64,000 bases of DNA from Candidatus Woesebacteria bacterium RBG_13_46_13 (GTDB lineage: Bacteria > Patescibacteriota > Microgenomatia > UBA8517): assembly GCA_001791995.1 (NCBI GenBank), contig MGFR01000002.1, positions 36,457-100,456 on the forward strand, read 5' to 3'. Positions 918 through 59,341 of the stretch are shown here, one piece after another. Under the pieces are notes generated by a model. It was given only the letters and a program-made list of their open reading frames with translations. It searched no databases and was not told the DNA's origin. Every line of letters begins with the position of its first letter. Within the stretch, counting starts at the first letter, position 1. A program made the translations under genes and the position numbers.

Positions 918-1580
918 TTGTTTGATAATATAAAATTGTCTCAAAGTCCAATTATGAAAACGGGTATCAAACTCCTTCTTGTTGTTGGGGCAACCGCCCT
1001 CTTCCTAATTTTTAACCATTTCTGGAAATGCGAAGGATTAAGATGCCTTTCATTCACTGGCCTTGAAAATTATAAGACAATCGAAGTCTACAAAAATGAT
1101 GCTTCTTCCTATAAGGCAATGCTTTCCATAGACAGCGGGGAACTTCTTAGGGTGGAGACAAGATATGGGTGGGAACCGTCGCAGGCGCAAAAGTATATAT
1201 CTTCGGAAACCCAAAGAATAAAGGGCCTATTCGCCGACGCCCCCGCTCCTTACCCAGGCGATGTGTCCAATGAAATAGTTTGTGCCAAGGAATACGCTCC
1301 AAAATATTTCGAAAAGAACATTGGCGACACAAAATTATATTATTTTTTGGGAAATATGAATTCTCGTCTTACACTGGGGGGGTGCAGCCCCGCCCAGGCC
1401 GTTTATAAAGTACAACTCGGATGGATTTATTGTTCGCAGCAAAAGAATCTCTATCAGCTGGAATTTATAGTTCCCGCCTCTTCGTACGATAAAAATCCGG
1501 AAAGATATGAAGGAGTTCTGGTCTCAATTAGATGTGTAAACCCTCTTAATTATTTGAAAACCGGAAGAATTTTACCCTGA
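918..1580 (+). CDS. Hypothetical protein with N-terminal hydrophobic anchor (start may be the internal Met at 954)
   Basis: 220 aa ORF in the track. A hydrophobic segment follows MKTGIKLLLVVGATALFLIF. No recognisable family. Confidence 0.4.
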   Translation: MFDNIKLSQSPIMKTGIKLLLVVGATALFLIFNHFWKCEGLRCLSFTGLENYKTIEVYKNDASSYKAMLSIDSGELLRVETRYGWEPSQAQKYISSETQRIKGLFADAPAPYPGDVSNEIVCAKEYAPKYFEKNIGDTKLYYFLGNMNSRLTLGGCSPAQAVYKVQLGWIYCSQQKNLYQLEFIVPASSYDKNPERYEGVLVSIRCVNPLNYLKTGRILP

Positions 1581-3547
1581 ACAAAAACAGGGATTTCTTT
1601 GCCCAGCGCCTTCATAATGGTGGGGTATTCGTCTACCATATCAAACGGTAAATTTCCGAGGAAGTTGCCCTTTTTGATATTGGGTCCGGAAATAATAAAA
1701 GGAGCCCACATGCCTGGAACCTCATCGGATTTTATGGCTTGTTTATAGCCAGTTTCCAGCGGGATGGAAAATACTTCGAGACCCTGGGTCATTTTTTCGC
1801 TCCATCCGTAACCAGGCTTGTTAGCAATTACCAAGTCTCCTATTCTTGCGGGGTCAAGGCGCAACTCCTCGCGCGCATTTTCCCACTTTACTATTTGAGC
1901 GACAGGGCTTTTTCCATCCGAGTCCCGCAAAGACGAGATTGTAGCTATAACCTCATTTCTTAGTCTTTCGTATTCGGCTCCGCTAGCCCTTTGATAATTT
2001 CCGGCCAAGCCGTTTGGATTTACAAAGACATGGGTCATTTTAAGAAAGATGACTTTTGAATTCTTCCAGTCGACAATCGGTTCTCCGGTTTGAGGGTCTA
2101 TTTTAAACTTGAGCCATCCCTTTTGAGCAAAAAGATTATTAAGTTGAACGCTTTGGTTTAAAGGAACGTTTCCGTGGTCCGATGTAAAAACGATATAAGT
2201 TTTTGGGCCGGAGACTTTTAGAATTTCTCCCACCATATCATCGAGTTTCTTATACATGTCTTTTACCTCTTCCCAAAGCTTATCTCTTTCTTCTTTCGAA
2301 ACTGTGTTGTAAAGGGATCCCTCTGGGTCAACATACCCCATCCACCAACGGCTTGTTAATATTTGATTAGGACTATATATATCGTGGATTACAACGGAAG
2401 GCTTGAAAGACTCAACCAGGGGAGCAATGGCTTTCTTGTGCCATTCGAACGATAAATTGCTTTCTTCCCAAAGGATATTTTTGTCTTCGGGGTAGTAGAC
2501 CAGCTGTGGAGGAAAGTTGTCGGCGAAATCTACCATTGGCCCGACCTTGTCAAGCAAAATTTTTGCGGCTTCCGCCGGTTGTGCAACAAGTTCGTTGAGG
2601 TTGTTGTAAAAAGCCCTAATTCTATAAAAATTATTGGGGCCAACCTTTATTAATGCTATTTTGACGGAAGTTGAGACGTCTGTTTCAGCCGTGTCGGTTT
2701 TCCACTTAAGGACAATAGGCTGCCAATTGCTCCATTGACCCGGGGAAAGAGTAGAGAAAACTGTCTTTTTATCCAAAGAAAAGGCCACTTTGTCATAATT
2801 AACCTTCCCGTCGTCTGTCGAGTCGAGAATTAGCGCCCAGATTTTCGCACCCCAGCCTACAAGCGGTACTTCCAGGGTATCCGAATAGCTGTATGGAGCA
2901 TTTTCCCAGCCGCCGGCGGGCTTTGCGTCTTCATAGATGGTAAGTTGAGGTCCGAAGTAGAAAAAACGAGCCTCCGTTCCCTGTTTGGTGCGTTGGGAAA
3001 GATTTCCCTTGGTTTCAAAATTCAAAGGTGCGAAATCTGCCCCCCATCCTCCCCATCGACCTCGAATGACAACCCCCTTATTCAACTCGGGCGGAGTTGA
3101 ACCAGGAATGGAAAGAAGGGCCACCTTTTCTCCTTGTTTCTCAAGGGTTACCCATATCGGCTCGACCTTTTTTGCCACAGACCTGAAACCCGGAACGGCT
3201 ACTTTATCAAGAGGTTTTCCTATTTCCCTCATTGGACCATCGGTAACGCCGTGTGTTTCGGGATACGAACCGGTTAAAAGAGTTGCGAAATTGGCTGGGG
3301 TGTGCCCGGGGTAGGTAGGTTTGACGTACCCATATGAACCTTTTTCCATAAGCTTTTTAATGTTGGGAAGCTTCCCTTCGTTTGCCCATTCGTAAATGTT
3401 GAAGAGGTTTGGTTCGGCTCGAACCCCGTCCGGGATAAACCAATAAAGTTTGAGGGGGGAGTAGACGGAGTTTTTGAAGACTATCAGAGCGAGTATAAGG
3501 ATTAGGGCGATTACAATTTTCTTGAGCACTACCTGAACTTTTACCAT
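1550..3547 (-). CDS. Alkaline phosphatase-superfamily enzyme, type I phosphodiesterase / nucleotide pyrophosphatase-like, membrane anchored
   Basis: 665 aa. N-terminal TM helix (IVIALILILALIVF). The C-terminal FTSDHGNVP motif and overall layout are typical of PF01663-type AP-family enzymes. Confidence 0.6.
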   Translation of the reverse strand: MVKVQVVLKKIVIALILILALIVFKNSVYSPLKLYWFIPDGVRAEPNLFNIYEWANEGKLPNIKKLMEKGSYGYVKPTYPGHTPANFATLLTGSYPETHGVTDGPMREIGKPLDKVAVPGFRSVAKKVEPIWVTLEKQGEKVALLSIPGSTPPELNKGVVIRGRWGGWGADFAPLNFETKGNLSQRTKQGTEARFFYFGPQLTIYEDAKPAGGWENAPYSYSDTLEVPLVGWGAKIWALILDSTDDGKVNYDKVAFSLDKKTVFSTLSPGQWSNWQPIVLKWKTDTAETDVSTSVKIALIKVGPNNFYRIRAFYNNLNELVAQPAEAAKILLDKVGPMVDFADNFPPQLVYYPEDKNILWEESNLSFEWHKKAIAPLVESFKPSVVIHDIYSPNQILTSRWWMGYVDPEGSLYNTVSKEERDKLWEEVKDMYKKLDDMVGEILKVSGPKTYIVFTSDHGNVPLNQSVQLNNLFAQKGWLKFKIDPQTGEPIVDWKNSKVIFLKMTHVFVNPNGLAGNYQRASGAEYERLRNEVIATISSLRDSDGKSPVAQIVKWENAREELRLDPARIGDLVIANKPGYGWSEKMTQGLEVFSIPLETGYKQAIKSDEVPGMWAPFIISGPNIKKGNFLGNLPFDMVDEYPTIMKALGKEIPVFVQGKILPVFK

Positions 3548-3635
3548 TATCCGTATTGTTTTTCAACCACCATTGGGAATGTTGTTGTATTGGAGATTTA
3601 TGGCCTGAAATTGTATAATTAGCGCTAGAATTCCC

Positions 3636-4520
3636 ATGAAGAGAGCACTATTGGCGGTCGTTTTTGCGTTATTGCTTTATTTGGCTTTTGTTCGGCCGGC
3701 ATTGGCCGTGGTTGTTAGTCCCAAACCAACCGCAACGGTTGCTCCCACGGCAACTCCCACACCCATTCCGACTCCGGTGGCCGATTTAACCGAAAAAACC
3801 AAAGAAACCCTGGGTCCACTTGAGGCACTTCTGCAGGCTCAAAAACCCGGTCCGGTTTGGCCTTTTAACCCCATAAAGCATGCGATCAGAAACGCCGTAG
3901 CGGCAGGAGTTCCGGCAAATACCATAGTTTTGCTCCTTCTTTTGCCTGTGGTTGCCGCAATTATTGCGGCCTTCAGGCACCTGGTGGGACTAAGGGGGTT
4001 TGGAATTTTCCTCCCGGCTGCTTTGGCCGTAACCTTTGTGGCCACCGGTCCGGTTGTGGGGATAGGGCTCTTCTTAACGATTGTCAGCGTTTCGATTCTG
4101 GCCAGGACGCTACTGCGGAAAACCAAGACCAAGCTTCAGTATCTGCCGCGAATGGCCCTGATCCTCTGGTTTGTGGTTTTTGGTGTCTTGGGCATTTTAT
4201 TTGCAGCCCCCATCATCAGACAGCCGCAGCTGAGCAAGGTTTCCATCTTTCCCGTCCTTATCCTGGCTCTGTTGGCCGAGGACTTTACCCGGGTGCAGCT
4301 AGGCAAATCCGCCCAGACCGCGATTAATTTAACATCCGAAACATTGGTTTTGGCCCTGGTTTCGTATTTGTTCCTGACGCTTGAACCGGTAAGGCAATTT
4401 GCTCTTCTTAACCCTGAAATATTACTTATCGGCGTGGTTATCTTCGACGTTGTTTTGGGTAAGTATGTCGGGTTGAGGATTTTGGAGATTTGGCGCTTTA
4501 GGAAACTTATCAACAGCTAA
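3636..4520 (+). CDS. Multi-pass (7TM-like) membrane protein with a signal/anchor and a Pro/Thr/Ala-rich N-terminal segment
   Basis: 294 aa. MKRALLAVVFALLLYLAF anchor, PKPTATVAPTATPTPIPTPV linker, then about 6-7 hydrophobic helices. Its stop at 4518-4520 is directly followed by the ATG at 4522 of an ATP-grasp gene. The layout resembles 7TM proteins that partner alpha-L-glutamate-ligase-like enzymes. Confidence 0.55.
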   Translation: MKRALLAVVFALLLYLAFVRPALAVVVSPKPTATVAPTATPTPIPTPVADLTEKTKETLGPLEALLQAQKPGPVWPFNPIKHAIRNAVAAGVPANTIVLLLLLPVVAAIIAAFRHLVGLRGFGIFLPAALAVTFVATGPVVGIGLFLTIVSVSILARTLLRKTKTKLQYLPRMALILWFVVFGVLGILFAAPIIRQPQLSKVSIFPVLILALLAEDFTRVQLGKSAQTAINLTSETLVLALVSYLFLTLEPVRQFALLNPEILLIGVVIFDVVLGKYVGLRILEIWRFRKLINS

Positions 4521-4521
4521 A

Positions 4522-5808
4522 ATGAAACCCTCTTCGATTCTTGGACTTAATGCCCGTTCCCAGCTTTTTTCCTACCTCTATAATTCCCCCAAAGGAAAAA
4601 GCGTTGCCGATTCGAAACTGGCCACCCATAGGGTATTGGACAAAGTCCAAATCCCAAACCCGGAAATTTTCGCAAAGTTCAAAGAACCCAGAGACGTTGA
4701 AAAATTCAACTGGGAGAGCCTTCCGGATGCTTTCGCACTCAAGCCTTCCAAAGGTTTGGGAGGAGAAGGGATAATAGTTGTTAAAAAAAAGGCACAGGAC
4801 TTGAAAGGTTGGATAACTACCCAAAGACAAAGGGTTACAGTTGATGATTTAAAACTTCACACCTCCGATATTTTGGAGGGAGCCTACTCGATGGACAATG
4901 CACCCGATGTCGCTTTTGTCCAGGAGTATGTAGGCAGGCACAAGGCCTTTCGCAAGTATGCCTACCGGGGAACTCCTGATATTCGGGTCATTGTTTTTAA
5001 CAAAGTTCCGATTATGGCCATGCTTAGGCTTCCGACCAAAGAATCGGGGGGAAGAGCAAATCTGCATCAGGGAGCAATCGGGGTGGGGATTGATATCGCA
5101 ACAGGGATTACCACCAAAGCAATCTGGCACGGAGGGCTCATTAGATTCAAACCCGATACTGGGCGCAAACTTCACGGAATAAAAATTCCCCACTGGACCC
5201 AAGTACTCGAAACGGCAGCCAAGGCCCAGAGTGCTTCCGGTTTAGGCTATCTGGGGGTGGATATTGTCCTTCATCCGGAAAAAGGGCCGATGGTTTTGGA
5301 AATCAATGCCGAGCCGGGCTTAACCATCCAGCTTGCCAATATGGCAGGATTGAGAAAAAGGCTGGATAGGATAGAAGGGTTGGAGGTAAGGGATGCCGAA
5401 CACGGCGTAAAAATCGCCAAGGCGCTCTTTGCGGCCGATTTCGCGGACAGAGTCAAAGCGGAGGAGGGAATTATCACAATTCCGGTTATGGAGGAGATTA
5501 AAGTAAAGGATAAGCGTGGCAAGAAGATGGTTATTCCCGCCAAGATAGACACCGGCGCATTCAGAACCTCCATCGACAAAACTCTGGCCAAAGACCTCGG
5601 TCTTTTGCAGGAGGAGAGTATCCTTTGGGAAAGAAGATTCAGAAACGCGATCGGAAAAGAGGAAAGGCCAATTATTCCTTTTACCTTCTGGTTAAGGGGA
5701 AGAAGAATAAAAACCACCGCAGGGGTGGCGGACAGAAGTAGACTAAGACGACCCGTCATTGTAGGAAGACGAGACCTGACCGGTTTTTTGGTAAATCCCG
5801 AAAAATGA
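4522..5808 (+). CDS. Alpha-L-glutamate ligase-like ATP-grasp enzyme fused to a C-terminal retropepsin-like aspartic protease domain
   Basis: N-terminus ILGLNARSQLFSYLYNSPKGKSVADSKLATHRVLDKVQIP resembles the RimK-related alpha-L-glutamate-ligase-like family. The C-terminal part has PAKIDTGAFRTSID, a D-T/S-G-A aspartic protease signature, as in the putative ATP-dependent zinc protease / retropepsin-like domain usually found next to RimK. Confidence 0.7.
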   Translation: MKPSSILGLNARSQLFSYLYNSPKGKSVADSKLATHRVLDKVQIPNPEIFAKFKEPRDVEKFNWESLPDAFALKPSKGLGGEGIIVVKKKAQDLKGWITTQRQRVTVDDLKLHTSDILEGAYSMDNAPDVAFVQEYVGRHKAFRKYAYRGTPDIRVIVFNKVPIMAMLRLPTKESGGRANLHQGAIGVGIDIATGITTKAIWHGGLIRFKPDTGRKLHGIKIPHWTQVLETAAKAQSASGLGYLGVDIVLHPEKGPMVLEINAEPGLTIQLANMAGLRKRLDRIEGLEVRDAEHGVKIAKALFAADFADRVKAEEGIITIPVMEEIKVKDKRGKKMVIPAKIDTGAFRTSIDKTLAKDLGLLQEESILWERRFRNAIGKEERPIIPFTFWLRGRRIKTTAGVADRSRLRRPVIVGRRDLTGFLVNPEK

Positions 5809-6716
5809 AAAAAATATTAATCATCGCCGGGGGCGGAACAAAACACATGGAGCCTTTTAAGGTGGAGGGGGAGAAGCTGGGACTAAAGGTGGTCACCGCC
5901 AGCTTTTCGGATCTCTCATACACCACAGAAGGGGAGTTAAAATTATTTGTAAAGGGACTTCTGGTTGAATCTTTTGACGTAATCTATGTCAGACTCGTCG
6001 GAAAAAGATTTGAAGATGTCTCGCTTTTGGTCAATTATGTCAAGGAAAAAGGAATAAGAATTGTAGACAAAATATACGAAAAATCTCATATAATCCGCCT
6101 TCCTATTGCCAAGGCATTGGAGGTAAAACTTCTCTCCCAGGCAGGGGTTGTCCTCCCCAAGACTTTCTTCGCGAAACTCTCCGAAATTAAGCAAAAGGCT
6201 CCCGAACTGTACGGATCCCCCTTTGTTATCAAAGGAACTACCGGTAAACAGGGGCACGCGGTTTGGTCACCGAGAAATGCCGAAGAGCTGGAAAAACTTT
6301 ATCAGGAGCTTAAAGGTAAGGAGAAAGAAGGCAAAAGGTTTTTGGCACAGGAGTTTATCAAGGCCAGCCAAAGGATTAGGGTTTTTGTCGTCGGAGGAAA
6401 AGCAATTGCCGCCATAACCAGACCGACTCGCTGGAGGAGGCGTTTTATCGCCAAGGTGAATGGGGAATTTCCGGAGGGAAGACGTGAAGCTCTACTCCCG
6501 GTTCCCCAGGAGGATGCAGATTTGGCCGTAAGTGCGGCCAACGCTTTGGATGTCGATATTGCCGGGGTGGATGTTATTCACGAAGACTCAACCGGGAAAG
6601 CCTACGTTTTGGAGGTCAATAGCGCCCCCCGCTGGGAATCAATAACTAAAGACACCGGCGTTAACGTCGAAAGAGAGATACTGTTGTATCTTGATAGTAT
6701 AATGTCAGAGAAATGA
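5805..6716 (+). CDS. RimK-family ATP-grasp ligase (ribosomal protein S6 glutamate ligase-like)
   Basis: MKKILIIAGGG..., GSPFVIKGTTGKQGHAV, RVFVVGGKAIAAITRP, AGVDVIHEDSTGKAYVLEVNSAP are ATP-grasp RimK-like motifs. Start overlaps the upstream stop (ATGA at 5805-5808). Confidence 0.75.
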   Translation: MKKILIIAGGGTKHMEPFKVEGEKLGLKVVTASFSDLSYTTEGELKLFVKGLLVESFDVIYVRLVGKRFEDVSLLVNYVKEKGIRIVDKIYEKSHIIRLPIAKALEVKLLSQAGVVLPKTFFAKLSEIKQKAPELYGSPFVIKGTTGKQGHAVWSPRNAEELEKLYQELKGKEKEGKRFLAQEFIKASQRIRVFVVGGKAIAAITRPTRWRRRFIAKVNGEFPEGRREALLPVPQEDADLAVSAANALDVDIAGVDVIHEDSTGKAYVLEVNSAPRWESITKDTGVNVEREILLYLDSIMSEK

Positions 6717-7348
6717 CCGAACTAAAAGACTTAAAGGACGGGCCGTTTGAGGAAAGGGTTGCGGAAGTTGACCGCTGGGTTATTGCCTATGCTTCAGAAG
6801 GGGCGATCGGTTTAATTGACCGGGAGATTCTTAGGGGGGTACTTTCTGAAGTTGGTGCGAATTTTGAAAATTTGGACGAGGACGGTACAAAATCCCTTGC
6901 CCAATACTCCAACAAAGGGAAACATTTGGGAATGGAACAAGTTTGGGGTGAGCGTAGAGCCGAATTTAAAACCTGGACCGAGGCTTGGGTGGAAACTTAT
7001 GAAAGAAGAACAGGAAAAGAGCTTCCGAAAGTGGTTTTTACGGATGAGGAGACAGGCGAGAAAAGACCGTCGAAGACGGAAGGAATGAGGCAGTTATTGG
7101 GTGAGCTAACGGCATATGCATCCGGTTGTCTGAGCTTTCCCGAGTTGGCAAAGATACTGATTACTAGGCGTTATAATTTTGGCAAACCAAAGGATCAGCC
7201 GGCAGAGGAAGGCGGGAGAAGGAAAATTACGTTTTCCGGTCACAATATAAGCCAAGAAACGGGTAAAGAAAAACCTTTTGCTCCGGCTTCTTTTCCTCCG
7301 GAATTTCCCCTGGATGCTTGGGAAAAGATTAAAAGTTGGCGGAAATGA
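6713..7348 (+). CDS. Hypothetical protein (operon member)
   Basis: 211 aa, acidic and charged, no recognisable family. Start overlaps the RimK stop (ATGA) and its stop overlaps the next gene. Confidence 0.5.
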   Translation: MTELKDLKDGPFEERVAEVDRWVIAYASEGAIGLIDREILRGVLSEVGANFENLDEDGTKSLAQYSNKGKHLGMEQVWGERRAEFKTWTEAWVETYERRTGKELPKVVFTDEETGEKRPSKTEGMRQLLGELTAYASGCLSFPELAKILITRRYNFGKPKDQPAEEGGRRKITFSGHNISQETGKEKPFAPASFPPEFPLDAWEKIKSWRK

Positions 7349-7935
7349 CCCCCAGAGACAGCTATCTCAGGCGTTTTCGTAAATACGGAGTTGACCCCAG
7401 GACGCTTAAGTGGCAAAGCCAAAAAGCCGCCGAGCAAAGATATTTGGAGATAACCACCCTTACGGATTTTAACGGAAAGTCTGTCTTGGATGTCGGCTGC
7501 GGTTTCGGGGATCTGGTAGCCTTCATTAATTCCAAAACCGAAAACTTCTCCTATACGGGGATAGACTTGATTAACGAGTTTATTTTAGCTGCCAGAAAAA
7601 AATATCCTGGCTTTAGCTTTGTCATGGGGGACTATTTTTCAGACCCCCTTGAGGAAAAATTCGACATCGTTGTTGCCAATGGGTCTCTAAACTCAAATGT
7701 CCCCGACAATTACGCTTTTAGGAAAAAAGCCATCAAAACAATGTTCGATCACGCAAGGCAAGCGGTTATCTTTAATATGGCAGGAGGGTTTGCTCCCAAA
7801 GAGACGGCCCGGGGAAGTAACGTGTTCTTTGCGGACGCTTCCAAGATAGTCGGATTTTGCGAAAGTCTTACCTCCTCAGTCGTTTTGACAGACCACCCCG
7901 GCCGGCGGGAATTTACCGTAATTATGGCCCGTTAG
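7336..7935 (+). CDS. Class I SAM-dependent methyltransferase
   Basis: Motif I VLDVGCGFGDL and downstream DIVVANGSL are typical of Rossmann-fold MTases. Overlaps the upstream ORF by 13 nt. Confidence 0.65.
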   Translation: MAEMTPRDSYLRRFRKYGVDPRTLKWQSQKAAEQRYLEITTLTDFNGKSVLDVGCGFGDLVAFINSKTENFSYTGIDLINEFILAARKKYPGFSFVMGDYFSDPLEEKFDIVVANGSLNSNVPDNYAFRKKAIKTMFDHARQAVIFNMAGGFAPKETARGSNVFFADASKIVGFCESLTSSVVLTDHPGRREFTVIMAR

Positions 7936-7986
7936 TGCTATAATATCCACGTTCTTTGGCAAATCCAAATCCAAAAGGAGGAGAGC

Positions 7987-8268
7987 ATGGAGGCACAAGC
8001 TTACTTTAACTGGATCCGTCGTCGGGCCGCGACACTGATTGTTGTTTCAGGTTTCCTGATTGTCGGCGCTATTGCGGCCTTCCTCTTCGGCAGGCCCGTG
8101 GTCGGAATGGTTCTGCTCTTGGGAGGGTTCATTCCCGGCTCTATGGCGGGAACCATCGGCTCGGCGAGCGAGCAGAAAGGCTGCTTTTGGTTTGCGGCAA
8201 GCATTATCTGCTGGCTCGCATTTTTGGGAGTGGTTGCCTGGGCTGTCTACGCCAACCTTTTCGGATAG
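7987..8268 (+). CDS. Small membrane protein (3 predicted TM helices)
   Basis: 93 aa hydrophobic ORF preceded by AAAGGAGGAGAGC ATG, a strong SD. Confidence 0.45.
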   Translation: MEAQAYFNWIRRRAATLIVVSGFLIVGAIAAFLFGRPVVGMVLLLGGFIPGSMAGTIGSASEQKGCFWFAASIICWLAFLGVVAWAVYANLFG

Positions 8269-8282
8269 GAAAGCCTCACCAT

Positions 8283-8333
8283 GTGCGCGGGATTATCCCG
8301 AAAGAGATGATTCCGCGCACGAAGTTTTTATTT
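8283..8333. terminator. Stem-loop (GTGCGCGG...CCGCGCAC) followed by a T-rich tract; probable terminator between convergent genes
   Basis: 8 bp GC-rich inverted repeat at 8283-8290 / 8313-8320, followed by GAAGTTTTTATTT. Lies between the stop of the 7987-8268 gene and the stop of rplL. Confidence 0.4.
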
Positions 8334-8729
8334 CAACTCCACTTTTGCTCCGGCTGCTGTTAGCTTATCGCTTGCAGCTTTTGCATCTTCCGCTTTTGCG
8401 TCCTTTAAAACCTCAGCCGGAAGAGTTTCGGTCATACCTTTTGCATCCATCAGAGTCAGGTTTTGATTGATTTCCCTAAGTGCTTTGATAACACCTATTT
8501 TATTTGCTCCTGCGTCCGTCATTACAACAGATTGGGTAGCTGCAGCTGTTGCGGCACCCGCTTCTGCTGCGGCTGGAGCTGCTGCCGGGGCTGCTGCGGC
8601 AACCGGCATCGCCGAGACTCCGAGTTTCTCCTGAAGTGTACTTACCAATTCCGAAAGTTCGATAACCGTAAGTTTGCCTATCTCTTCTGTCAATTCATCG
8701 ACTTTTTTGGTTTTTTTCTCTTCTGCCAT
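8328..8729 (-). CDS. rplL: 50S ribosomal protein L7/L12
   Basis: MAEEKKTKKVDELTEEIGKLTVIELSELV...AAAAPAAAPAAAEAG...KVELK has the classic L7/L12 N-terminal dimerisation domain, Ala/Pro hinge and C-terminal domain. The track ORF extends to a GTG at 8738; the ATG at 8727-8729 is preferred because it avoids overlap with rplJ. Confidence 0.9.
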   Translation of the reverse strand: MAEEKKTKKVDELTEEIGKLTVIELSELVSTLQEKLGVSAMPVAAAAPAAAPAAAEAGAATAAATQSVVMTDAGANKIGVIKALREINQNLTLMDAKGMTETLPAEVLKDAKAEDAKAASDKLTAAGAKVELK

Positions 8730-8730
8730 G

Positions 8731-9249
8731 TTACTCACCGCCTTTCGATTTTAAGATATAAATAAGTTTTTGCATGTTTCCCTCAAGGGTTCCGACCAAT
8801 CCGTAAGAGGGGGAGAGAAGTACTCCCAAGACCTGTCCCAAAAGCACATCTCTGCTGGGAAGGGTGGATATTTTAAGCAGGCTTTCGCTGTCCTGGAAGG
8901 CACCGTCAATTACTCCGACCTTGAGCTTGGGAACCTCGTATTCCTTTGCAAAGGTTCCAAGTATCTGTACCGGAGCAATGGCATCATCTTCACCAACGAC
9001 CAAAGCCGTCTGGCCGGAAAGAATCTCATCCTGGAGAATTTCGGGACTGACCCTAGCGGCTTCCCCCGCGCGTTTTAACAAGGTGTTTTTAACAACCAGC
9101 ATCTTGGCACCCACCTCTTTGAGTCTTCTTTTTAATTCCTGCTGGCTTTTGACGGACAGACCCTGATAATTAATAAGCACCACGGATTTAGCCGTCTTTA
9201 GCTCCTGGGTCAGGTTTTCGACAAAGAATATTTTTTCTGCCTTTTTCAT
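8731..9249 (-). CDS. rplJ: 50S ribosomal protein L10
   Basis: MKKAEKIFFVENLTQELKTAKSVVLINYQGLSV...; canonical rplJ-rplL order. Confidence 0.9.
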   Translation of the reverse strand: MKKAEKIFFVENLTQELKTAKSVVLINYQGLSVKSQQELKRRLKEVGAKMLVVKNTLLKRAGEAARVSPEILQDEILSGQTALVVGEDDAIAPVQILGTFAKEYEVPKLKVGVIDGAFQDSESLLKISTLPSRDVLLGQVLGVLLSPSYGLVGTLEGNMQKLIYILKSKGGE

Positions 9250-9261
9250 TTTGTTTGCATT

Positions 9262-9283
9262 AAAAAAGCGCCTTCGAGGCGCC
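9262..9283 (-). terminator. Intrinsic terminator / attenuator hairpin about 13 nt upstream of the rplJ start
   Basis: On the minus strand: GGCGCC-TCGAA-GGCGC (5-6 bp GC stem, 5 nt loop), immediately followed by TTTTTT, then AATGCAAACAAA ATG (rplJ). Confidence 0.45.
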
Positions 9284-9369
9284 TATATACAAGATACTTA
9301 TATACGCTTTTGCCTCGGCACGAATTATGGTTCGACTTGGCGCACCACGTGCTGTCTTGGGACAGAGAT

Positions 9370-9397
9370 ATTATAAATTAAAGGGGATTATTGTCAA
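9370..9397 (-). promoter_or_regulatory. Near-consensus sigma70-type promoter (TTGACA-16 nt-TATAAT) upstream of the rplJ leader
   Basis: Minus strand: TTGACA (9392-9397), ATAATCCCCTTTAATT spacer, TATAAT (9370-9375). Confidence 0.35.
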
Positions 9398-10146
9398 CCG
9401 TTAGCTTTGCCTTCACCCCGCAGAATCCTTAAAAAGGGAATTCTGTCGTACCAGCGTCTTTTAATCTCCTGCCCTCGGCTAATGGATTGCTTGGCGGCAA
9501 CTTGTTCAAGGGCTGGTGCGGGGGTTGCTGGGGGCTGGGTTTTGGTCTCAACCACCTGCCCGATGCCTCTTTGGGCTACCTGTTCGCGGTAGTCGGGGGC
9601 CGGCCTAACCGGGCCTTGCCTAACGGCGGTTTCGACATATTTGGGGGCAAGTCTGGTTTGCTCTCTTTTTAACCAGGAAGGGGCTGTTGCGGGGGCCTCT
9701 GTCGAGGTGGCGGTTGTCGGAAAGGTTTCCGTTTGTGAAGGCGTCTCGGCAGGAGGGGTAACCGGAGCTGGCGTTCTCCTTACAAAGACAGAAGGCGCTT
9801 GGGCTTTGGCATCGATTTCTTTTTGAGTATCCATTATTGCATTAAATCTTCTAACCCCCTCGTCTCTTATTCCGCTTTTGGCCTTAACCGCTTCCGGGGT
9901 CGTTCCCTCCCAGTTGGCCATGCTTGCGGCTAGTCTGTTGCGATCGGTTAAGGGCTCGAGTTTGTTCTCGGCCGTTATGGTATCGGACCCTTTAGCTTCC
10001 TCTTCCTGTCCGCCGCTTTTGGTCTTAACTTTTCCCGGGGTCGTTCCCTCCCAGTTGGCCATGCTTGCGGCTAGTCTGTTGCGATCGGTTAAGGGCTCAC
10101 GTTGATCCTCGGCCATGAGTATTATTCTAACAGGGGCAAAAGGCAA
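9394..10146 (-). CDS. Hypothetical Pro/Thr/Ala-rich protein with an internal duplicated 21-residue motif, inserted between rplA and rplJ
   Basis: 250 aa ORF filling the whole rplA-rplJ gap. The motif EPLTDRNRLAASMANWEGTTP occurs twice and is encoded by two 64 bp identical DNA repeats. The start may be the internal Met (MAEDQREPL). Confidence 0.5.
   Translation of the reverse strand: MPFAPVRIILMAEDQREPLTDRNRLAASMANWEGTTPGKVKTKSGGQEEEAKGSDTITAENKLEPLTDRNRLAASMANWEGTTPEAVKAKSGIRDEGVRRFNAIMDTQKEIDAKAQAPSVFVRRTPAPVTPPAETPSQTETFPTTATSTEAPATAPSWLKREQTRLAPKYVETAVRQGPVRPAPDYREQVAQRGIGQVVETKTQPPATPAPALEQVAAKQSISRGQEIKRRWYDRIPFLRILRGEGKANG
9894..9957. repeat. 64 bp direct repeat, copy 1 (intragenic)
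   Basis: CCGGGGTCGTTCCCTCCCAGTTGGCCATGCTTGCGGCTAGTCTGTTGCGATCGGTTAAGGGCTC is identical to the copy at 10035-10098. Confidence 0.85.
10035..10098. repeat. 64 bp direct repeat, copy 2 (intragenic)
   Basis: Exact copy of 9894-9957, 141 bp away, in the same reading frame of the 9394-10146 ORF. Confidence 0.85.
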
Positions 10147-19424: not shown

Positions 19425-20321
19425 TTATCTTCGGGAACGAACAAGAAACGCAATTGATGCCAGCAAGAGTATTCCTGCTGATGCAATTATTGCGGCGGAC
19501 TTAAAAGGTGAGCTTGGGGTTGGGGGAGTTATTGTGACTTCGCGGGTTATCTTTTCAGAGACGGTTGGCGTCGGGGAGGAGGTTATAACTGGCTTTTGTG
19601 TCGGAGTGGGTGAGTTTACGGCAAGAGCGGCTTTTGCCGATAATTCATTAGAGATCGGTCCAAGGGTGCACCCGTTTCCCGGAATCACTATAAAATAGTA
19701 AATTACACCGGTACCAAGACTTCCTACCGTATACGAGGTGGTGTTTGCTCCTCCAACGTTGGGGTTGCCAAAAATATAAGTTCCCTTTTTCGTTCCGTAA
19801 TAAACGGTATAAAAAGTTACAGGGTCGGTTGCCTTCGTCCAGGTGAGTTTGATCTGGGAATTAGATATCGGAGTTGCCGAGACAAGTTTAGGAGGGCCAC
19901 CCGGGGCGGCGTCGGTGCAGGTGGTGGAATAAAAAGTCACGTGTCCGATTCCCGGGAGGGCAACGTTCTGGGTTTTATCGACGATATCGAGCGAATCGAC
20001 TCCTTCCTTGGTCGATTTGATGTAAAAAACTGCCTTACCCGAGCTATCGAGCTTGTTTGATTCAGGAGCGACTATAGCCGAGGGATCATCTGTCACCACA
20101 ACGCTTACTTCCTCTCCTGCCAGGGGAGTGCCGTAGGCATCCTTCACAGTAACGGTTAATACCGCCTCGGTTTTCCCATCGGCCGGTACTCTATCGGAGC
20201 CGGACATCGTAGCTACGATACTGGAACTATGAAAATCAGGAGAATTGTAAGCTGCCGTCCATTTGGAAAAAGCAAAAAAGAAAGCAAGAAAAAGAAAGGC
20301 TATTAATAATATTTTTCTCAT
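19425..20321 (-). CDS. Secreted/cell-surface protein with Ig-like/FN3-like beta domains and C-terminal TM anchor
   Basis: N-terminal signal (MRKILLIAFLFLAFFFAFS). Beta-rich repeats (TVTVKDAYGTPLAGEEVSVVVTD; KLTWTKATDPVTFYTVYYG is FN3-like). C-terminal SAAIIASAGILLLASIAFLVRSRR anchor. Confidence 0.5.
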   Translation of the reverse strand: MRKILLIAFLFLAFFFAFSKWTAAYNSPDFHSSSIVATMSGSDRVPADGKTEAVLTVTVKDAYGTPLAGEEVSVVVTDDPSAIVAPESNKLDSSGKAVFYIKSTKEGVDSLDIVDKTQNVALPGIGHVTFYSTTCTDAAPGGPPKLVSATPISNSQIKLTWTKATDPVTFYTVYYGTKKGTYIFGNPNVGGANTTSYTVGSLGTGVIYYFIVIPGNGCTLGPISNELSAKAALAVNSPTPTQKPVITSSPTPTVSEKITREVTITPPTPSSPFKSAAIIASAGILLLASIAFLVRSRR

Positions 20322-20385
20322 ATATTTATTATAGACAGGTACCCTGAGAGGGTGAAGTATTGAAGGCAGTAATTCTGAAGTTGGC

Positions 20386-20482
20386 AGGCCTTAGTATCCG
20401 AACTTCGAACAATTTGGCACGAAGTGAGCTCGTTTGACATAAACAAAATGCGAGGATTTATAAATCCTCACCCAGTTTTTGC
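20386..20482. repeat. Island intergenic repeat, full copy 1 (core A ACTTCGAACAATTTGGCAC, core B AATCCTCACCCAG)
   Basis: About 80% identical to 22264-22362. Core B lies about 60 nt upstream of the start of the 20538 gene. Confidence 0.6.
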
Positions 20483-20537
20483 TTAAAGATATAAATTGCA
20501 TTAGAATCGCCTGGCTAGTAAATTAAAAAAAGAGCGT

Positions 20538-21194
20538 ATGAAAGCCATTTTGGGAAGAAACAAACAACTTATGGATGTTTTTCTAGATTTAGACCCACTA
20601 CCTGTCAATAATACTGATGAGGAAGTCGGTAGGAGTTTTTTATTTAGATTTCGACCTAATTTAGCAAACATTGGAAAACGAACGAAGCAAATAAAAAGGA
20701 TTGGGATGGCATACGATACCCCAAGTGTTGCGATGTACGATCAAGCAAAAGATCTTTATAGTCTCGGATATTTTGTCTCTTCAATAATAGTTTGTAGGTC
20801 TACTGCAGAATATTTGGCGTTTGAGATATTTCTTGAGGAGGTTGAGCTGGAAGGTAAAACGGAGATTATAGAGTCAGTAGCGGAGAGTTTAGATTTTAGA
20901 AAAGTAGTTAACGAGTTTCTTTATAATCCAAAAAAAGGTTTTGCGTATATTAACAAGGACACGCACGACATATTTAATAATCTTTATTCATTGGCTAACA
21001 ATTGGGTTCATCCTAGAAAGATCAAGGATAAGGTTAAAATCGAAAAAGTTGCATTTAAGTCACTGGAAATGCTAGGTTCTTTACTTTCATCTCTTCGAGA
21101 TGTGATGAAAGATTATAAAGTTGTTAAAGGTTCACTAGTAAGGAAAGCTACTGCAAGAAAGAAAGTTAGGCCAATTATTTTGGGACACAAGTAA
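20538..21194 (+). CDS. Hypothetical protein (AT-rich island)
   Basis: 218 aa ORF in a low-GC segment, no family recognised. Confidence 0.45.
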   Translation: MKAILGRNKQLMDVFLDLDPLPVNNTDEEVGRSFLFRFRPNLANIGKRTKQIKRIGMAYDTPSVAMYDQAKDLYSLGYFVSSIIVCRSTAEYLAFEIFLEEVELEGKTEIIESVAESLDFRKVVNEFLYNPKKGFAYINKDTHDIFNNLYSLANNWVHPRKIKDKVKIEKVAFKSLEMLGSLLSSLRDVMKDYKVVKGSLVRKATARKKVRPIILGHK

Positions 21195-21204
21195 ACAGAA
21201 TAAG

Positions 21205-22197
21205 TTAGAGCCCGAGGAGAAGCAGCTTACTTGGATCTAATTGTTCAACAAAATGATATTCCCCAGTTTTTCCGTCCTTCAGCTTATATGTAATTTTTTC
21301 GGAATTACGAACAGTCATTGAACCCAACATTACAATTTTGCCATCAATTATGGTCCCTATATGTCCGGTTGGGAATAATAGACCGTTTTGACTAACAATT
21401 GCGGCCAAAATGTGACCTCCAACGGTTGCAAACTTGTATTTTATGCTCTCTTTGTTTACGAAGCTCATCAATGTTTCGGCATCCTTGTACATTACCGACT
21501 CCAAGTTCACCGCATTTCTTTCCCCGAATTCAAGCTCTGAAAGTAAAAGGGGTGGGACAACGACCGTTACAGACTTTTGATTTGGATGAAAAGCGACATA
21601 AGAATACAAAGGCACCTCATTTTTTACAAAAGTACAGTTCCTAACATCAATTTCCAGCGTAATCATTCTCGTTTGGGGATAGTCTATTTCAACATACATA
21701 CCTTTTGTTAATTGGCCGTTATTTTTTGACATTGCATTTACAAGACCATCAATTATGTCCTGGTCGATTGATTGGTGCATATGGGTGCCTTCACCCCTCG
21801 CTTTTAAGGGATTAGACATATTGTTTCCTAGAATTGAGCTTTCTATGGTTTGCTTTTTAGTTGGGTTAAAACCTGCGATTATGAGGGCGACATTTCCATA
21901 CCTTCCTGTCGAATTGACGTATTCACTTATTATAGTTTTTAGATCAGTGTCAATAATACTTTCGAGCTCATCAAAAGAAGAACTCTCTTTAATTTTAGAT
22001 TTGAGGTCATTTAGTATAAAAGAAGCAGGGGCAGCGTCTCCGGCTTCAAGAGCATCGATTTGATGGTTGAGCACGAATGCTTTTATCAAATCATCATCAT
22101 ATTTATCTGGTCTACCATCCGAGTATCGAGTTGTGGCTCTAGTATCAGAAACAAGAAACATTTTCTTGGCCAGATGAACCCCCAGAATCAGTGACAT
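21205..22197 (-). CDS. Hypothetical protein (AT-rich island); N-terminus uncertain
   Basis: The track ORF runs to 22311 but its 5' end overlaps the conserved intergenic repeat. An internal Met (MSLILGV... or MFLVSD...) is more likely the start. Confidence 0.4.
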   Translation of the reverse strand: MSLILGVHLAKKMFLVSDTRATTRYSDGRPDKYDDDLIKAFVLNHQIDALEAGDAAPASFILNDLKSKIKESSSFDELESIIDTDLKTIISEYVNSTGRYGNVALIIAGFNPTKKQTIESSILGNNMSNPLKARGEGTHMHQSIDQDIIDGLVNAMSKNNGQLTKGMYVEIDYPQTRMITLEIDVRNCTFVKNEVPLYSYVAFHPNQKSVTVVVPPLLLSELEFGERNAVNLESVMYKDAETLMSFVNKESIKYKFATVGGHILAAIVSQNGLLFPTGHIGTIIDGKIVMLGSMTVRNSEKITYKLKDGKTGEYHFVEQLDPSKLLLLGL

Positions 22198-22263
22198 TTG
22201 ACAGATTATAGCATTCCAAATTAAGCACGGGGGACGAGGACTACGTACACTGAATGTGAGGGC

Positions 22264-22362
22264 GGGCCTTAGTATATCAACTTCGAACAATTTGGCACAA
22301 GATGAGCTCATTTGATGTAGATAAAGTCCAACAATTTCTTAATCCTCAACCAGCAATTGCTT
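22264..22362. repeat. Island intergenic repeat, full copy 2
   Basis: GGCCTTAGTATATCAACTTCGAACAATTTGGCACAAGATGAGCTCATTTGATG...TTTCTTAATCCTCAACCAGC. Core B is 48 nt upstream of the 22401 gene. Confidence 0.6.
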
Positions 22363-22400
22363 ACAATTAACCGGCAATATAGAATTTAGGCATCGCTAAA

Positions 22401-22793
22401 ATGAAAAGATTGTCCCCAAATGAAAAATGGAACAGATTTAATAAAAAACTAGAGGAGTTGATGAAATCGAATGATTTTTATGGTTTGGGAGTAATTTATC
22501 AGGAAATGGCCAACTTCTTAAATAATGAAGGGAAAGATTCCAAAGAAATGCTTAATAAAGCCCATGAGATGAAGCTCACACATCACAGAAATTATATAAA
22601 GAATTTACGATACGATTCTCCAATCTGTGTAGGGGTTGAGGTTCGTTGCACAGATGATAGTTGTAGAAGCTGTAAAAGCTTGCAAGGTAAAGTTTTTGAT
22701 TTTGATAAAGCCATAGAGACAAATCCTTTACCTGTTAGAAATTGTAGCCATGAATATGGTTGCAGGTGTGTTTATCTTCCTGTAGCTAATTGA
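22401..22793 (+). CDS. Hypothetical protein with Cys-rich C-terminus (possible zinc ribbon)
   Basis: 130 aa; the C-terminal segment ...CVGVEVRCTDDSCRSCKSLQGKV...CSHEYGCRCVYLP carries several Cys pairs. Confidence 0.45.
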   Translation: MKRLSPNEKWNRFNKKLEELMKSNDFYGLGVIYQEMANFLNNEGKDSKEMLNKAHEMKLTHHRNYIKNLRYDSPICVGVEVRCTDDSCRSCKSLQGKVFDFDKAIETNPLPVRNCSHEYGCRCVYLPVAN

Positions 22794-22807
22794 GTGGAGA
22801 AAGGTCA

Positions 22808-22835
22808 AGAGTTTCTTAATCCTCGGCCAGCCTTC
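22808..22835. repeat. Island intergenic repeat, half copy (core B only: TTTCTTAATCCTCGGCCAGCC)
   Basis: 40 nt upstream of the 22869 gene. Confidence 0.5.
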
Positions 22836-22868
22836 GGTCTTACCTAATTTCTGATAAAATATGGCTGT

Positions 22869-23390
22869 ATGAAGATGGATCAGCTGATAGACAAGAAGAA
22901 GTTGAAACATCCAGACTTTTGGTTTGTTAAGGCACACGCATACGCTTCAGCATGCCTTTTTATATTAGAAGAATTTTCCAGGGCGATTAAAGACAAAGAC
23001 GGGGAGAATAGGACTAGACTAAAAGAAGTTACTCTTAGCCTCTCTTCCGTTGGGGCAACTCCCTATTTAGTCGGAATTTCTAGCGAATTGTATATGAAGG
23101 GGTACTTAATATCTAAAGGAGAAAAACCTGACGCGCTAAAGAGGGTAGGTCACAACTTAAAAACCATTAGAGAAAAATGTGCAACTTTTGGAGACCCGAG
23201 GTTTAATGATAAAGACCTAATCTTTCTTGCCGATACTCTTGGCAAATATTTGATGGAGGATGGGGGAGTTAGATATCCAGATAAAAATGACTTACCTATT
23301 TATATACCAATTTTTAAAAACATTTTAAATATGTTTCATAAATTAAGTATTGAAGTGTCAGACACCCCTGCTAAAGGAGAAGATACTTGA
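22869..23390 (+). CDS. Hypothetical protein (AT-rich island)
   Basis: 173 aa, predicted helical, no confident family. Confidence 0.45.
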   Translation: MKMDQLIDKKKLKHPDFWFVKAHAYASACLFILEEFSRAIKDKDGENRTRLKEVTLSLSSVGATPYLVGISSELYMKGYLISKGEKPDALKRVGHNLKTIREKCATFGDPRFNDKDLIFLADTLGKYLMEDGGVRYPDKNDLPIYIPIFKNILNMFHKLSIEVSDTPAKGEDT

Positions 23391-23392
23391 TT

Positions 23393-23440
23393 TAAATAGT
23401 TCCACTTCGAACAATCTGGTGCAGGATAAGCCTTGAGATG
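23393..23440. repeat. Island intergenic repeat, half copy (core A-like: CACTTCGAACAATCTGGTGCAGGATAAGCC)
   Basis: Similar to the first half of the full copies. Confidence 0.45.
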
Positions 23441-23579
23441 GGGAAGATACAATAATTTCTAGGTTCAACATATGTTTCAATAACGATAACCAGCAACTAA
23501 ACTGGGTGAAATTCAAATATTTATTTCAAATGGAACCAATGTTTTTTCAAGTTATGATAAATCTTTATAGACTAGATAT

Positions 23580-24497
23580 TTAATATTTCTTAAAATCAGT
23601 AAGTCTTTCAAAAATCTTTTCCATAGCCTCAGCAAAAGTACCAGAAATAGGAATAGTATTTCCGCTCCTGCCAGAACTAGTATTCCATTCTTCAAACTTT
23701 TGTTTATCACCCACATAGAAAATGTTCGCATGGGTTTCTCTTAGAGGATCCCATATATGATAATCTTGTGGGTAAGGCTTTACTCCCACAATTATTACTT
23801 GTTTTACATTGAGTATTAGATTTTTCCACTCCTTTTGGATATGCTCAATAAAATCAAAACCTAATGGAGCCGGTTTATTCTCTGTAAAAAGAGCCATTAC
23901 TGGATACAAAGGGGTATCACTAGTTAATTTTTCAGTTACTTTTTCGGGGGTGTTTAGTGAGTATATTGGCGCTTTTATTCGCATATCTGAACTAAAATTG
24001 ACATACCTATTCATTCCCTCAAAATCGAGGAACCAGTTGCATGAACCATGAAGTTTTATAAGTAATATACCTCCTTTATTGGGGGGAATAAGATAATTTG
24101 TTTTAAAACCATTTCTAGTAAGTTCTCCGTCAAGCAAGCAATCATAATTAAGTGTTGATAGTATTGTGTCATCGCTTTTTATCTTAATAAGATATTTAAT
24201 AATCTCACCATATCGGGTTTCATTTTTTGGAGTGAATCTATTAAAGTAAATACCTAATTGTTGGAGCAATAAAGAAGATATATCGCTGTGTTTTTTCCAT
24301 AATGAGTCCATACCTTTTTCAAAATTTTGCAAAAATAAAGTATTGAGATCTTCTGGCAGCTTTCCCCAGGTGTCCGGAAACGTAGAAACTAATATAGAGT
24401 GAAGTTCTCCTCCCAATGGAGGTTGATGGGGAAAAATGTCCCCGCAGTCATGACTTGCACCAGCACCAAATAAAAATACGGTATTAATCTTACCCAT
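23580..24497 (-). CDS. SIR2-like domain protein (SIR2_2 / DUF4020-type NAD-binding fold), standalone
   Basis: N-terminal VFLFGAGASHDCGDIFP matches the SIR2_2 signature (LFxGAGxS...G.P), and LIKLHGSCNW supplies the HGS motif. 305 aa, no fused effector or sensor domains. Confidence 0.6.
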   Translation of the reverse strand: MGKINTVFLFGAGASHDCGDIFPHQPPLGGELHSILVSTFPDTWGKLPEDLNTLFLQNFEKGMDSLWKKHSDISSLLLQQLGIYFNRFTPKNETRYGEIIKYLIKIKSDDTILSTLNYDCLLDGELTRNGFKTNYLIPPNKGGILLIKLHGSCNWFLDFEGMNRYVNFSSDMRIKAPIYSLNTPEKVTEKLTSDTPLYPVMALFTENKPAPLGFDFIEHIQKEWKNLILNVKQVIIVGVKPYPQDYHIWDPLRETHANIFYVGDKQKFEEWNTSSGRSGNTIPISGTFAEAMEKIFERLTDFKKY

Positions 24498-24675
24498 TTT
24501 AAGCCCGCCTCGTTCATCAAGTATCCAGGTACATGTCCAAATACCATGGAAATCTACTTAAAATTCTCTTCGCCCTTGACTTTTCTATATAATATCACTT
24601 GAGGCTAGCAGGGGCTAGAAACTATGTAGGGAACTTTTTCAAGGTTGAATTTCACCAAGTTGATATGATTTATTA

Positions 24676-25237: not shown

Positions 25238-25247
25238 GGAGCTACCA

Positions 25248-25451: not shown

Positions 25452-25456
25452 TCCTG

Positions 25457-58820: not shown

Positions 58821-59056
58821 CCCCCAAAATCCTTTCGGCCTTTGCCCTATCCCCATCCTGGAGGGCATTCGCTGCAGCCATAAGGTCCTTATATACAGGT
58901 ACTTCGGTACCGAACTGGGTTGCAAGATGCGCGGCCGAATCTCTCAAATATTTGGGAGTCACTTTTTCTGTTGAGCCTGGATGGTCTGTTTCGGCTGTTG
59001 CCATTGGGAGATTTTAACAATTGAGGGAAACATTTTCAAATGATATACTTCGCCGT

Positions 59057-59341
59057 ATGCAAAAGTACGAATTAACCATAGTTTTCGATGCAAAAATAAG
59101 CGCCGCGAAGCGAAAAGCGGTTAGGGAGGCCATTGAGAAGGCGGTTGGCCTTTTGAAGGGGAAAATAGGAGCTGTTGCCGATTGGGGAGAAAAGGACCTG
59201 GCCGGCAAAATTAAGAAGGCAACCAGAGGGTATTATATTTATTTTCCGCTCGAACTTTCTTCCGATTCTGCCAAGAAATTATTGGAGAAAATGAAGTCGG
59301 AGGATGCTATAATCAGGTACTTATTGGTGAGGGAAAAGTAA
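59057..59341 (+). CDS. rpsF: 30S ribosomal protein S6
   Basis: MQKYELTIVFDAKISAAKRKAVREAIEKAV... fits the S6 family. The track ORF begins at 59021; the internal Met at 59057 matches the usual S6 N-terminus. Confidence 0.8.
   Translation: MQKYELTIVFDAKISAAKRKAVREAIEKAVGLLKGKIGAVADWGEKDLAGKIKKATRGYYIYFPLELSSDSAKKLLEKMKSEDAIIRYLLVREK

Follow-up and report, generated by a model that had tools for sequence, protein, structure and literature searches.

We analyzed a window of 64,000 nucleotides (nt) from Candidatus Woesebacteria bacterium RBG_13_46_13 (GenBank assembly GCA_001791995.1, contig MGFR01000002.1, positions 36,457 to 100,456 of the forward strand), and all coordinates given for it count from its first letter. 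The subject is the open reading frame (ORF) at 4522..5808 on the plus strand, which starts with ATG and encodes 428 amino acids (aa). It is a fusion gene that joins an N-terminal ATP-grasp ligase to a C-terminal retropepsin-like aspartic protease. At 100% identity, the protein matches 'hypothetical protein A2V61_02265' of Candidatus Woesebacteria bacterium RBG_19FT_COMBO_47_8, which places the window in a Microgenomates-group member of Patescibacteria. A preliminary description, made from the sequence alone, had proposed a single polypeptide here; its coordinates were exact, and the strings that it quoted are all present (ILGLNARS at aa 6-13, ADSKLATHRVLDKVQIP at aa 29-45, and PAKIDTGAFRTSID at aa 339-352). 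Hydropathy analysis found no signal peptide, transmembrane (TM) segment or other hydrophobic segment in the protein, and both domains are therefore predicted to be cytoplasmic. The parts of the gene are as follows (pI, isoelectric point).

4522..5808, plus strand: whole fusion gene, 428 aa, predicted cytoplasmic
4522..5376, plus strand: ATP-grasp ligase domain, RloC-like or alpha-L-glutamate-ligase-like (aa 1-285; PF14397, TIGR02291)
5377..5469, plus strand: helical connector GLEVRDAEHGVKIAKALFAADFADRVKAEEG (aa 286-316), found in fused forms only
5470..5805, plus strand: compact retropepsin-like aspartic protease domain (aa 317-428; pI 10.9, no Cys)
5548..5559, plus strand: catalytic motif D343-T-G-A346, with the invariant K341 just before it

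The N-terminal domain had been assigned to the RimK-related, alpha-L-glutamate-ligase-like ATP-grasp enzymes, and family searches led to the same place. PF14397 (ATPgrasp_ST) was matched over aa 13-285 (E-value, E, 1.6e-67; 228 bits against a threshold of 31.4). The best NCBIfam model was TIGR02291, 'alpha-L-glutamate ligase-like protein' (E 9e-81), with a score of 271.3 bits that lies under the cut-off of 314.2 bits. The full-length AlphaFold model had a predicted local distance difference test score (pLDDT) of 84, and the closest solved folds were ArgX/LysX and RimK (E about 1e-10). Residues K74, D247, E260 and N262 were invariant in 48 close and 5 distant homologues (relatives at 30-45% identity), and were kept across alignments with a mean column identity of 28%. 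We take them to be the nucleotide and Mg residues of an ATP-grasp enzyme, namely the Lys of K-P..G and the Asp and E-x-N that serve as Mg ligands. A direct sequence search of the full-length protein against PDB gave no match at E <= 1e-3; for solved structures, useful matches came only from the domain profile and the fold searches. In related cassettes, ligases that stand alone stop at about residue 285. The best explanation is that the domain is RloC-like and lies within the RimK/LysX clade. RloC is the cytoplasmic ATP-grasp protein of the Pseudomonas RloABC system, whose RloB is an inactive-transglutaminase/seven-transmembrane (7TM) protein (PMC12239564).

The C-terminal domain had been proposed from its DTGA motif. 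By itself this motif would be weak evidence for a protease domain, and we estimate its chance expectation at about 0.02 per protein of such length. Against PF05618 (Zn_protease/RimB-like; gathering threshold 27 bits), the whole protein scored 22.7 bits and the domain taken by itself 27.0 bits. Each of 40 homologous C-terminal domains matched this family at E <= 0.01 (best 6e-11). A profile of these 40 domains found RloA2 (9g59, E 2.4e-6), RloA (9g58) and Lpg0085 (2pma) in PDB, followed by ApRick and Ddi1, the matches ranging to E 4.6e-3. In the predicted structure this part of the protein models as a retropepsin fold, as the preliminary description had expected. The domain was missed in about half of the homologues because its score lies at or just under the Pfam threshold.

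The domain has about 110 residues, which is near the size of a viral protease. About 16 residues separate its two matched blocks, against about 48 in RloA2, and the long flaps of RloA fall in the region that is shortened here (PMC12239564). By these profile matches it is a divergent, shortened PF05618 subtype. A second retropepsin motif, V-G415-R416-R-D418-L, stands before the last strand; G415 is invariant and R416 nearly so, and the model has a short helix at aa 416-419. K341 and R405 are also invariant in the homologues. K341 lies two residues before the catalytic Asp, at the position of K46 of RloA, and a Lys at this place is common to the fusion domain, RloA, RloA2 and Lpg0085. In the profile alignment, R405 aligns with the Arg of the D-R-S motif of the same three proteins.

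RloA is a secreted RimB paralogue with a basic substrate channel, and in vitro it cleaves chains of at least eight consecutive Glu; it uses conserved Lys and Arg residues, including K46, which contacts polyglutamate (PMC12239564). The fused protease domain is likewise strongly basic (pI 10.9; median net charge of +12 over 40 homologues). The basic charge, K341 and R405 thus point indirectly to an acidic substrate.

Could the two domains have been joined by a frameshift or an assembly error between adjacent genes? They are indeed usually encoded by separate adjacent genes, as had been pointed out; this is true for rimB/rimK (PMC11957791) and rloA/rloC (PMC12239564). We found 120 full-length homologues of 426-448 aa, with 67-80% identity and 99-100% coverage, in NCBI, JGI, ENA and Logan assemblies; the single ORF recurs in more than 120 protein clusters from these sources. 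Where the homologues carry a name, it is 'alpha-L-glutamate ligase-like', 'sugar-transfer associated ATP-grasp' or 'hypothetical'. When one genome was scanned for each GTDB species, 271 genomes proved to encode a relative of the C-terminal domain. Eighty loci were fetched from these, all apparently from Microgenomates-type Patescibacteria, and the locus counts below refer to them. In 75 of the 80 loci, a single ORF of 400 aa or more encoded both domains (single-ORF length 422-515 aa). Three exceptions were cut by contig ends (L018, L029, L057). The gene is split into two ORFs in one other locus (L037) and the ORF has 357 aa in another (L024); these two cases would fit an artefact, but they are isolated assemblies. 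Since a single ORF recurs across many independent assemblies, and the connector is moreover conserved at the protein level, we reject the artefact, which has next to no chance of being correct. The fusion is a genuine covalent one.

Many records of metagenome-assembled genomes (MAGs) titled 'uncultured Gammaproteobacteria/Pseudomonadales', and one titled 'Bathyarchaeia', carry a Microgenomates-type cassette at 50-70% identity. Examples are L003, L004, L007, L018 and L050 (OZ246397.1, a 615-kb chromosome), and some of these records have chromosomes of about 0.5-0.6 Mb. The taxonomic labels of such records look wrong or like placeholders.

The segment joining the two domains (aa 283-320) contains LEVRDAEHGVKIAKALFAxRFADRVKAEEGIKT in the homologues, and it is absent from stand-alone ligases. 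The mean column identity of the connector is 0.83-0.87, against 0.5-0.8 in the protease domain, and the connector is conserved above either flank of that domain. AlphaFold2 (AF2) places helices at aa 292-302 and 307-314, with pLDDT below 50 for aa 307-316. A candidate internal start that would yield a separate protease was unconvincing: V311 is encoded by GTC, and 19 nt separate the GGAGGAGG string of the connector from the next ATG (M322).

Retropepsins classically process themselves. The fusion may accordingly be read as a polyprotein of the Gag-Pol kind, in which two protease domains pair and release themselves from the ligase by a cut at the connector, so that the fusion would ensure stoichiometric co-expression. 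The unusual conservation of the connector, the A-E-E-G motif directly ahead of the first protease strand and the low AF2 confidence around it all speak for such a cut, whose products would be separate RloC-like and RimB-like proteins. However, a conserved helical segment suits a structural or regulatory role at least equally well. RloA needs about eight consecutive Glu (PMC12239564), and the connector has two. Moreover, some relatives carry further enzymatic domains after the protease, namely a MATCAP metallocarboxypeptidase in one ligase-protease fusion (P0235, L091:95-2491) and a YdjC-like domain in another (P0230, L089:1159-3225), for which a multi-domain enzyme is the simpler reading. We therefore regard self-processing as unlikely.

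The protease domain might also be a non-catalytic regulatory or oligomerisation module of the ligase. There is a precedent for this, since RimB binds RimK and raises its ATPase activity (PMC11957791). The motif is degenerate in one locus (L088, Logan SRR33375177, 2712-4777), where a 430-aa ligase fusion reads MVDTRAF (Gly replaced by Arg), and one representative reads ATG. Against this stands the conservation of the catalytic residues. DTGA was invariant in 120 of 120 close homologues, and D[TS]G was kept in 161 of 162 domain instances (family representatives and cluster members), beside the constancy of K341, R405 and G415 and the near constancy of R416. Where the motif was lost, the degenerate fusion is followed by a separate 258-aa gene with two intact tandem retropepsin domains (P0121). 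This looks like a dead fused domain that was replaced by a covalent pseudo-dimer. From the kept motif and the intact tandem gene we conclude that protease activity is probably required, and a purely non-catalytic role seems very improbable. The two tandem relatives, P0121 and P0129 (the latter a tandem protease joined to a 7TM protein, L081:5001-6464), give indirect support for the pairing of an Asp dyad. They look like an independent bacterial re-run of the transition from retropepsin to pepsin, that is, from a dimer to a bilobed monomer.

The fusion gene is the middle gene of a conserved cassette, which lies in a run of tightly packed same-strand genes (3636 to 8268). The stop codon of the 7TM gene is 1 nt ahead of the fusion ATG, and the next ligase gene overlaps the fusion stop by 4 nt. 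The other features of this stretch are listed below.

3591..3619, plus strand: promoter-like site TGGAGA-17-TATAAT (consensus scan, 10/12 matches; pattern only)
3636..4520, plus strand: RloB-like 7TM membrane protein, 294 aa; PF14402
5805..6716, plus strand: second ATP-grasp ligase, RimK family, 303 aa; PF08443
6713..7348, plus strand: 211-aa protein of unknown family, overlapping the neighbouring genes
7336..7935, plus strand: class I methyltransferase dependent on S-adenosylmethionine, 199 aa; PF13649 and related families
7987..8268, plus strand: 93-aa membrane ORF within the same-strand gene run
8282..8321, plus strand: terminator-like hairpin with a 16-base-pair stem, downstream of the 93-aa ORF (pattern match only)

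Two neighbours are conserved. A 7TM homologue stands directly upstream on the same strand in 72 of the 80 loci, and a RimK-like ligase directly downstream in 57, often as two paralogues; the intergenic gaps are mostly -4 to +15 nt. The 7TM protein matched PF14402 (7TM_transglut) with E 1.6e-26 (93.7 bits against 25). It reached 67 bits against the 900-bit cut-off of the RloB model NF052267, and aligned to profile positions 312-506 only, which are the 7TM part. Pfam and NCBIfam scans found no transglutaminase-like domain in it. It starts with a signal or anchor (aa 8-26), followed by an extracytoplasmic linker of about 68 aa that is rich in Pro and Thr, and then by seven TM helices; hydropathy and the positive-inside rule fit an N-out/C-in topology. 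The downstream ligase matched PF08443 (E 6.9e-25), and scored 128.8 bits for TIGR00768 (cut-off 143.4) and 60 bits for PRK10446 (cut-off 331).

The remaining genes are less constant. The 211-aa protein had no Pfam or NCBIfam match, and a homologue was present in 3 of the 80 loci; it is probably in the same operon, though not a conserved cassette member. The methyltransferase, with homologues in 7 of the 80, is an occasional member. The hairpin would end the operon if the pattern match is taken at face value. Promoter-like sites of this kind were not enriched over shuffles (7 found against 4.9 expected). Divergent from the cassette lies a gene for a 665-aa protein of the type I phosphodiesterase/nucleotide pyrophosphatase family with an N-terminal TM anchor (1550-3547, minus strand), which is not kept beside the cassette in the 80 related loci. 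Glutamate dehydrogenase (GDH) was considered as a further conserved neighbour and rejected, as it adjoins the cassette in 4 distinct contexts of about 84 (L081:7412-8695, L027:2190-3377, L033:2462-3484, L088:8-688) and is absent from this place in the window. Its presence in these four contexts is a weak hint that glutamate supply is tied to the system.

To see how else the same protease subtype is used, we searched 1.84 billion cluster representatives with the domain profile and found 1690 proteins at E <= 1e-3, 444 of them at E <= 1e-10. Architectures were counted among 150 listed representatives and 12 cluster members. The ligase-protease form of the window occurred about 36 times, fragments counted. 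A form with a signal or anchor, the protease and 7TM_transglut occurred 28 times, and its members with a source name are from Chloroflexota. A further 86 were short forms, some bearing a hydrophobic segment at the N-terminus and others not; some of these short forms are certainly fragments. Two proteins were triple fusions of anchor, protease, 7TM and ligase (P0201 and P0275). At the protease-7TM loci (L081-L086), the fusion is followed by a gene for a stand-alone ATPgrasp_ST protein of 288-290 aa. In a side case (P0171), the protease domain is attached to the C-terminal end of a class I lysyl-tRNA synthetase; this fusion stands on a single 4-kb contig and may be an artefact.

These alternative fusions link the protease, the 7TM protein and the ligase with one another, from which we conclude that the three modules are likely to form one functional unit. 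In P0201 the conserved cytoplasmic 7TM tail (GxRLTExxRF) leads directly into the ligase N-terminus, LGMNxRN. This junction suggests that the cytoplasmic C-terminus of the 7TM module is the docking site of the ligase, and that the fusion enzyme of the window may be physically coupled to its 7TM partner. We also conclude from the predicted topologies that the protease would lie outside the membrane in some lineages and inside in others.

Our preferred reading is that the protein is a cytoplasmic bifunctional enzyme, whose ATP-grasp domain builds alpha-linked acidic chains, whose paired retropepsin domain cuts them, and which acts with a 7TM partner. We put its probability at roughly 0.55. Observed here are the identities of the domains, their intact catalytic motifs, the cytoplasmic location, a fusion and a cassette that are both conserved, and alternative fusions by which the three modules are linked. 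The ATP-grasp domain would use ATP and add alpha-linked amino acids, most probably glutamate, to a presumed carboxylate acceptor, and repeated additions would build acidic oligo- or polypeptide chains. The retropepsin would be active only when two copies pair, and oligomerisation of the ligase would allow such dimerisation. As an endopeptidase with polyanionic chains as its likely substrate, it could then limit their length, release them or reverse the modification. The enzyme would work at the membrane with the RloB-like 7TM protein, usually together with one or two downstream RimK-like ligases. Coupled add-and-cleave chemistry, which the preliminary description had suggested for the fusion, is a reasonable expectation by analogy with RimK and RimB.

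Several candidate acceptors were considered and rejected. The C-terminus of the 7TM protein is unlikely because it is fused to the ligase in P0201. The C-terminal tail of the fusion protein itself is not supported as an acceptor: only 37 of 115 tails end in D or E, and further domains follow the protease in P0235 and P0230. RimK-type modification of ribosomal protein S6 is also unlikely: the S6 homologue of the window (59021..59341, plus strand) ends in IIRYLLVREK, with no Glu-rich tail.

Some points weigh against the bifunctional enzyme. The sequence does not prove a specificity for glutamate. PF14397 bears the name 'sugar-transfer associated', so some of its members may modify glycans and not peptides. 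Orthology to RloBC is not established, since the N-terminal domain scores under the TIGR02291 cut-off and the 7TM protein has no transglutaminase-like domain. The S6 of this genome is without the acidic tail that RimK extends, which makes a canonical RimK/S6 (RpsF) cycle unlikely in this genome; its RimK-like ligases probably have another acceptor. Finally, proteases of the same subtype lie outside the membrane in relatives, out of reach of a cytoplasmic ligase, and a simple model in which both activities act on the same bound chain therefore fails across the family. The fusion of the protease to the extracytoplasmic end of the 7TM protein in these relatives also argues against a purely intramolecular self-maturation.

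The occurrence of the protease on either side of the membrane makes a product that crosses the membrane attractive. The ligase might make a polyanionic peptide, for example poly-alpha-glutamate, which the 7TM protein would take over or let through on its way to the envelope; we hold this tentatively, as a clear minority view. The protease might then be a chain-release or chain-length factor, which would act before export in the window and after export where it sits on the outer face of the 7TM protein or is secreted as RloA, a role that is equally tentative. The 7TM protein and the ligase stay constant while the protease changes sides between lineages, and the junction in P0201 puts the ligase at the cytoplasmic mouth of the 7TM protein. 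In Pseudomonas, the defects of a mutant lacking all three protease paralogues were fully or partly rescued by deleting rloB or rloC (PMC12239564). Loss of the secreted RloA proteases is harmful only with RloB and RloC present, as would be expected if an exported product accumulated (PMC12239564). The substrate of the Rlo system is not established in that work; it found no genome-encoded polyglutamate candidates, a result that also favours the export reading. The GDH genes beside the cassette are a weak hint in the same direction, but this adjacency is rare. On the other hand, PF14402 is without a known transport function, and a cytoplasmic endopeptidase on the synthase would seem counter to the export of long chains.

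Taken to its end, the export reading would make the 7TM protein, the RloC-like ligase and the compact retropepsin a membrane machine for a non-ribosomal polyanionic peptide that is passed across or anchored at the membrane, which we consider possible but rather doubtful. With similar reserve, the protease could be an interchangeable release or length module, placed outside in the 7TM fusions and RloA and inside in the ligase fusion. If true, Patescibacteria, whose genomes are minimal and which live on host cells, would possess an envelope polymer pathway that had gone unrecognised, and the same activity would fill in the biochemical function still missing for the Pseudomonas Rlo system.

The two domain families are already known, and so is their partnership within operons. 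The searchable literature appears to hold no description of the covalent ligase-retropepsin enzyme, of its conservation in hundreds of Patescibacteria species, or of the complementary fusions that change the membrane side of the protease. Searches for retropepsin, RimK and ATP-grasp in Patescibacteria or the candidate phyla radiation (CPR), and for MATCAP with ATP-grasp, found no account of the fusion; the work of Iyer et al. from 2009 stood outside this comparison. That work is said to have first described contextual links between ATP-grasp, 7TM and peptidase families. The fusions provide independent sequence-based evidence that the ligase, the protease and the 7TM protein act as one unit, and they extend the system beyond Proteobacteria into Patescibacteria and Chloroflexota. 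One soluble single-chain protein with both predicted activities is a convenient object for biochemistry, and the change of sides by the protease sets limits on models for the nature and destination of the product. A specialist may find the fusion more useful than startling; greater surprises are the side-switching and the spread into CPR.

Other features of the window were noted in passing. A low-GC stretch (20000-26200, 36-40% against about 48%) adjoins four tRNA genes (Trp, Thr, Tyr, Thr; 25456-26170, minus strand). Among the ORFs of this stretch, the one Pfam match was a weak proteasome/Ntn-like one for 21205..22311 (minus strand), and the stretch may have been acquired as an island. Upstream of rplJ-rplL (8328..9249), at 9253-9379 on the minus strand, is a ribosomal protein L10 leader (RF00557, 48.4 bits). 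Just upstream of this leader is a 250-aa Pro/Thr/Ala-rich ORF (9394..10146), which contains the internal repeat EPLTDRNRLAASMANWEGTTP twice and had no family match.

We compared the cassette with known systems. RloABC of Pseudomonas (mBio 2025) has the same three modules, that is, a PF05618 retropepsin, a PF14402 7TM protein and a PF14397/TIGR02291-type ligase, and in both systems they are encoded together. The proteases share DTGA, the Lys two residues upstream and a basic surface. However, RloA is secreted or periplasmic and has periplasmic disulfide cysteines, whereas the protease of the window has no signal peptide, sits on the C-terminus of a cytoplasmic ligase and is compact, with no Cys. 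RloB has a transglutaminase-like domain, in place of which the 7TM protein of the window has a Pro/Thr-rich linker of 68 aa. The window ligase is under the TIGR02291 cut-off, one or two RimK-like ligases are added in cassettes of the window type, and the host is a member of Patescibacteria and not of Proteobacteria, to which 96% of RloB was reported to belong (PMC12239564).

The RimK-RimB pair (RimABK, Pseudomonas, JBC 2025) likewise combines a cytoplasmic retropepsin with an ATP-grasp alpha-L-glutamate ligase. RimB is a dimeric retropepsin that cuts terminal and internal polyglutamate (PMC11957791), and the fusion makes permanent a pairing such as that of RimB with RimK. The operon of the window also has a RimK-like gene, and RimK is among the best folds for the N-terminal domain. 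In contrast to RimK proper, the ligase that bears the protease is RloC-like (PF14397), and the cassette is without RimA and has a 7TM partner.

The protease-7TM fusions (P0195, P0202, P0207, P0260, P0129) have the same compact protease subtype, with profile E of 1e-18 to 1e-23 against 1e-6 for RloA2, and the same 7TM and ligase families in adjacent or overlapping genes. They differ in that the protease stands behind an N-terminal signal or anchor and is extracytoplasmic, on the opposite side of the membrane, and that the ligase is separate (288-290 aa) and without the connector. The retroviral retropepsins (HIV-1, foamy virus, EIAV), the RVP domain of Ddi1 and ApRick share only 16-26% identity with the window domain, which has a basic surface, an unrelated genomic context and a place at the C-terminus of a ligase. 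The closest characterised system is RloABC, and not only RimK. The cassette of the window combines the Rlo module set with the protease location of RimB and an extra RimK-like ligase.

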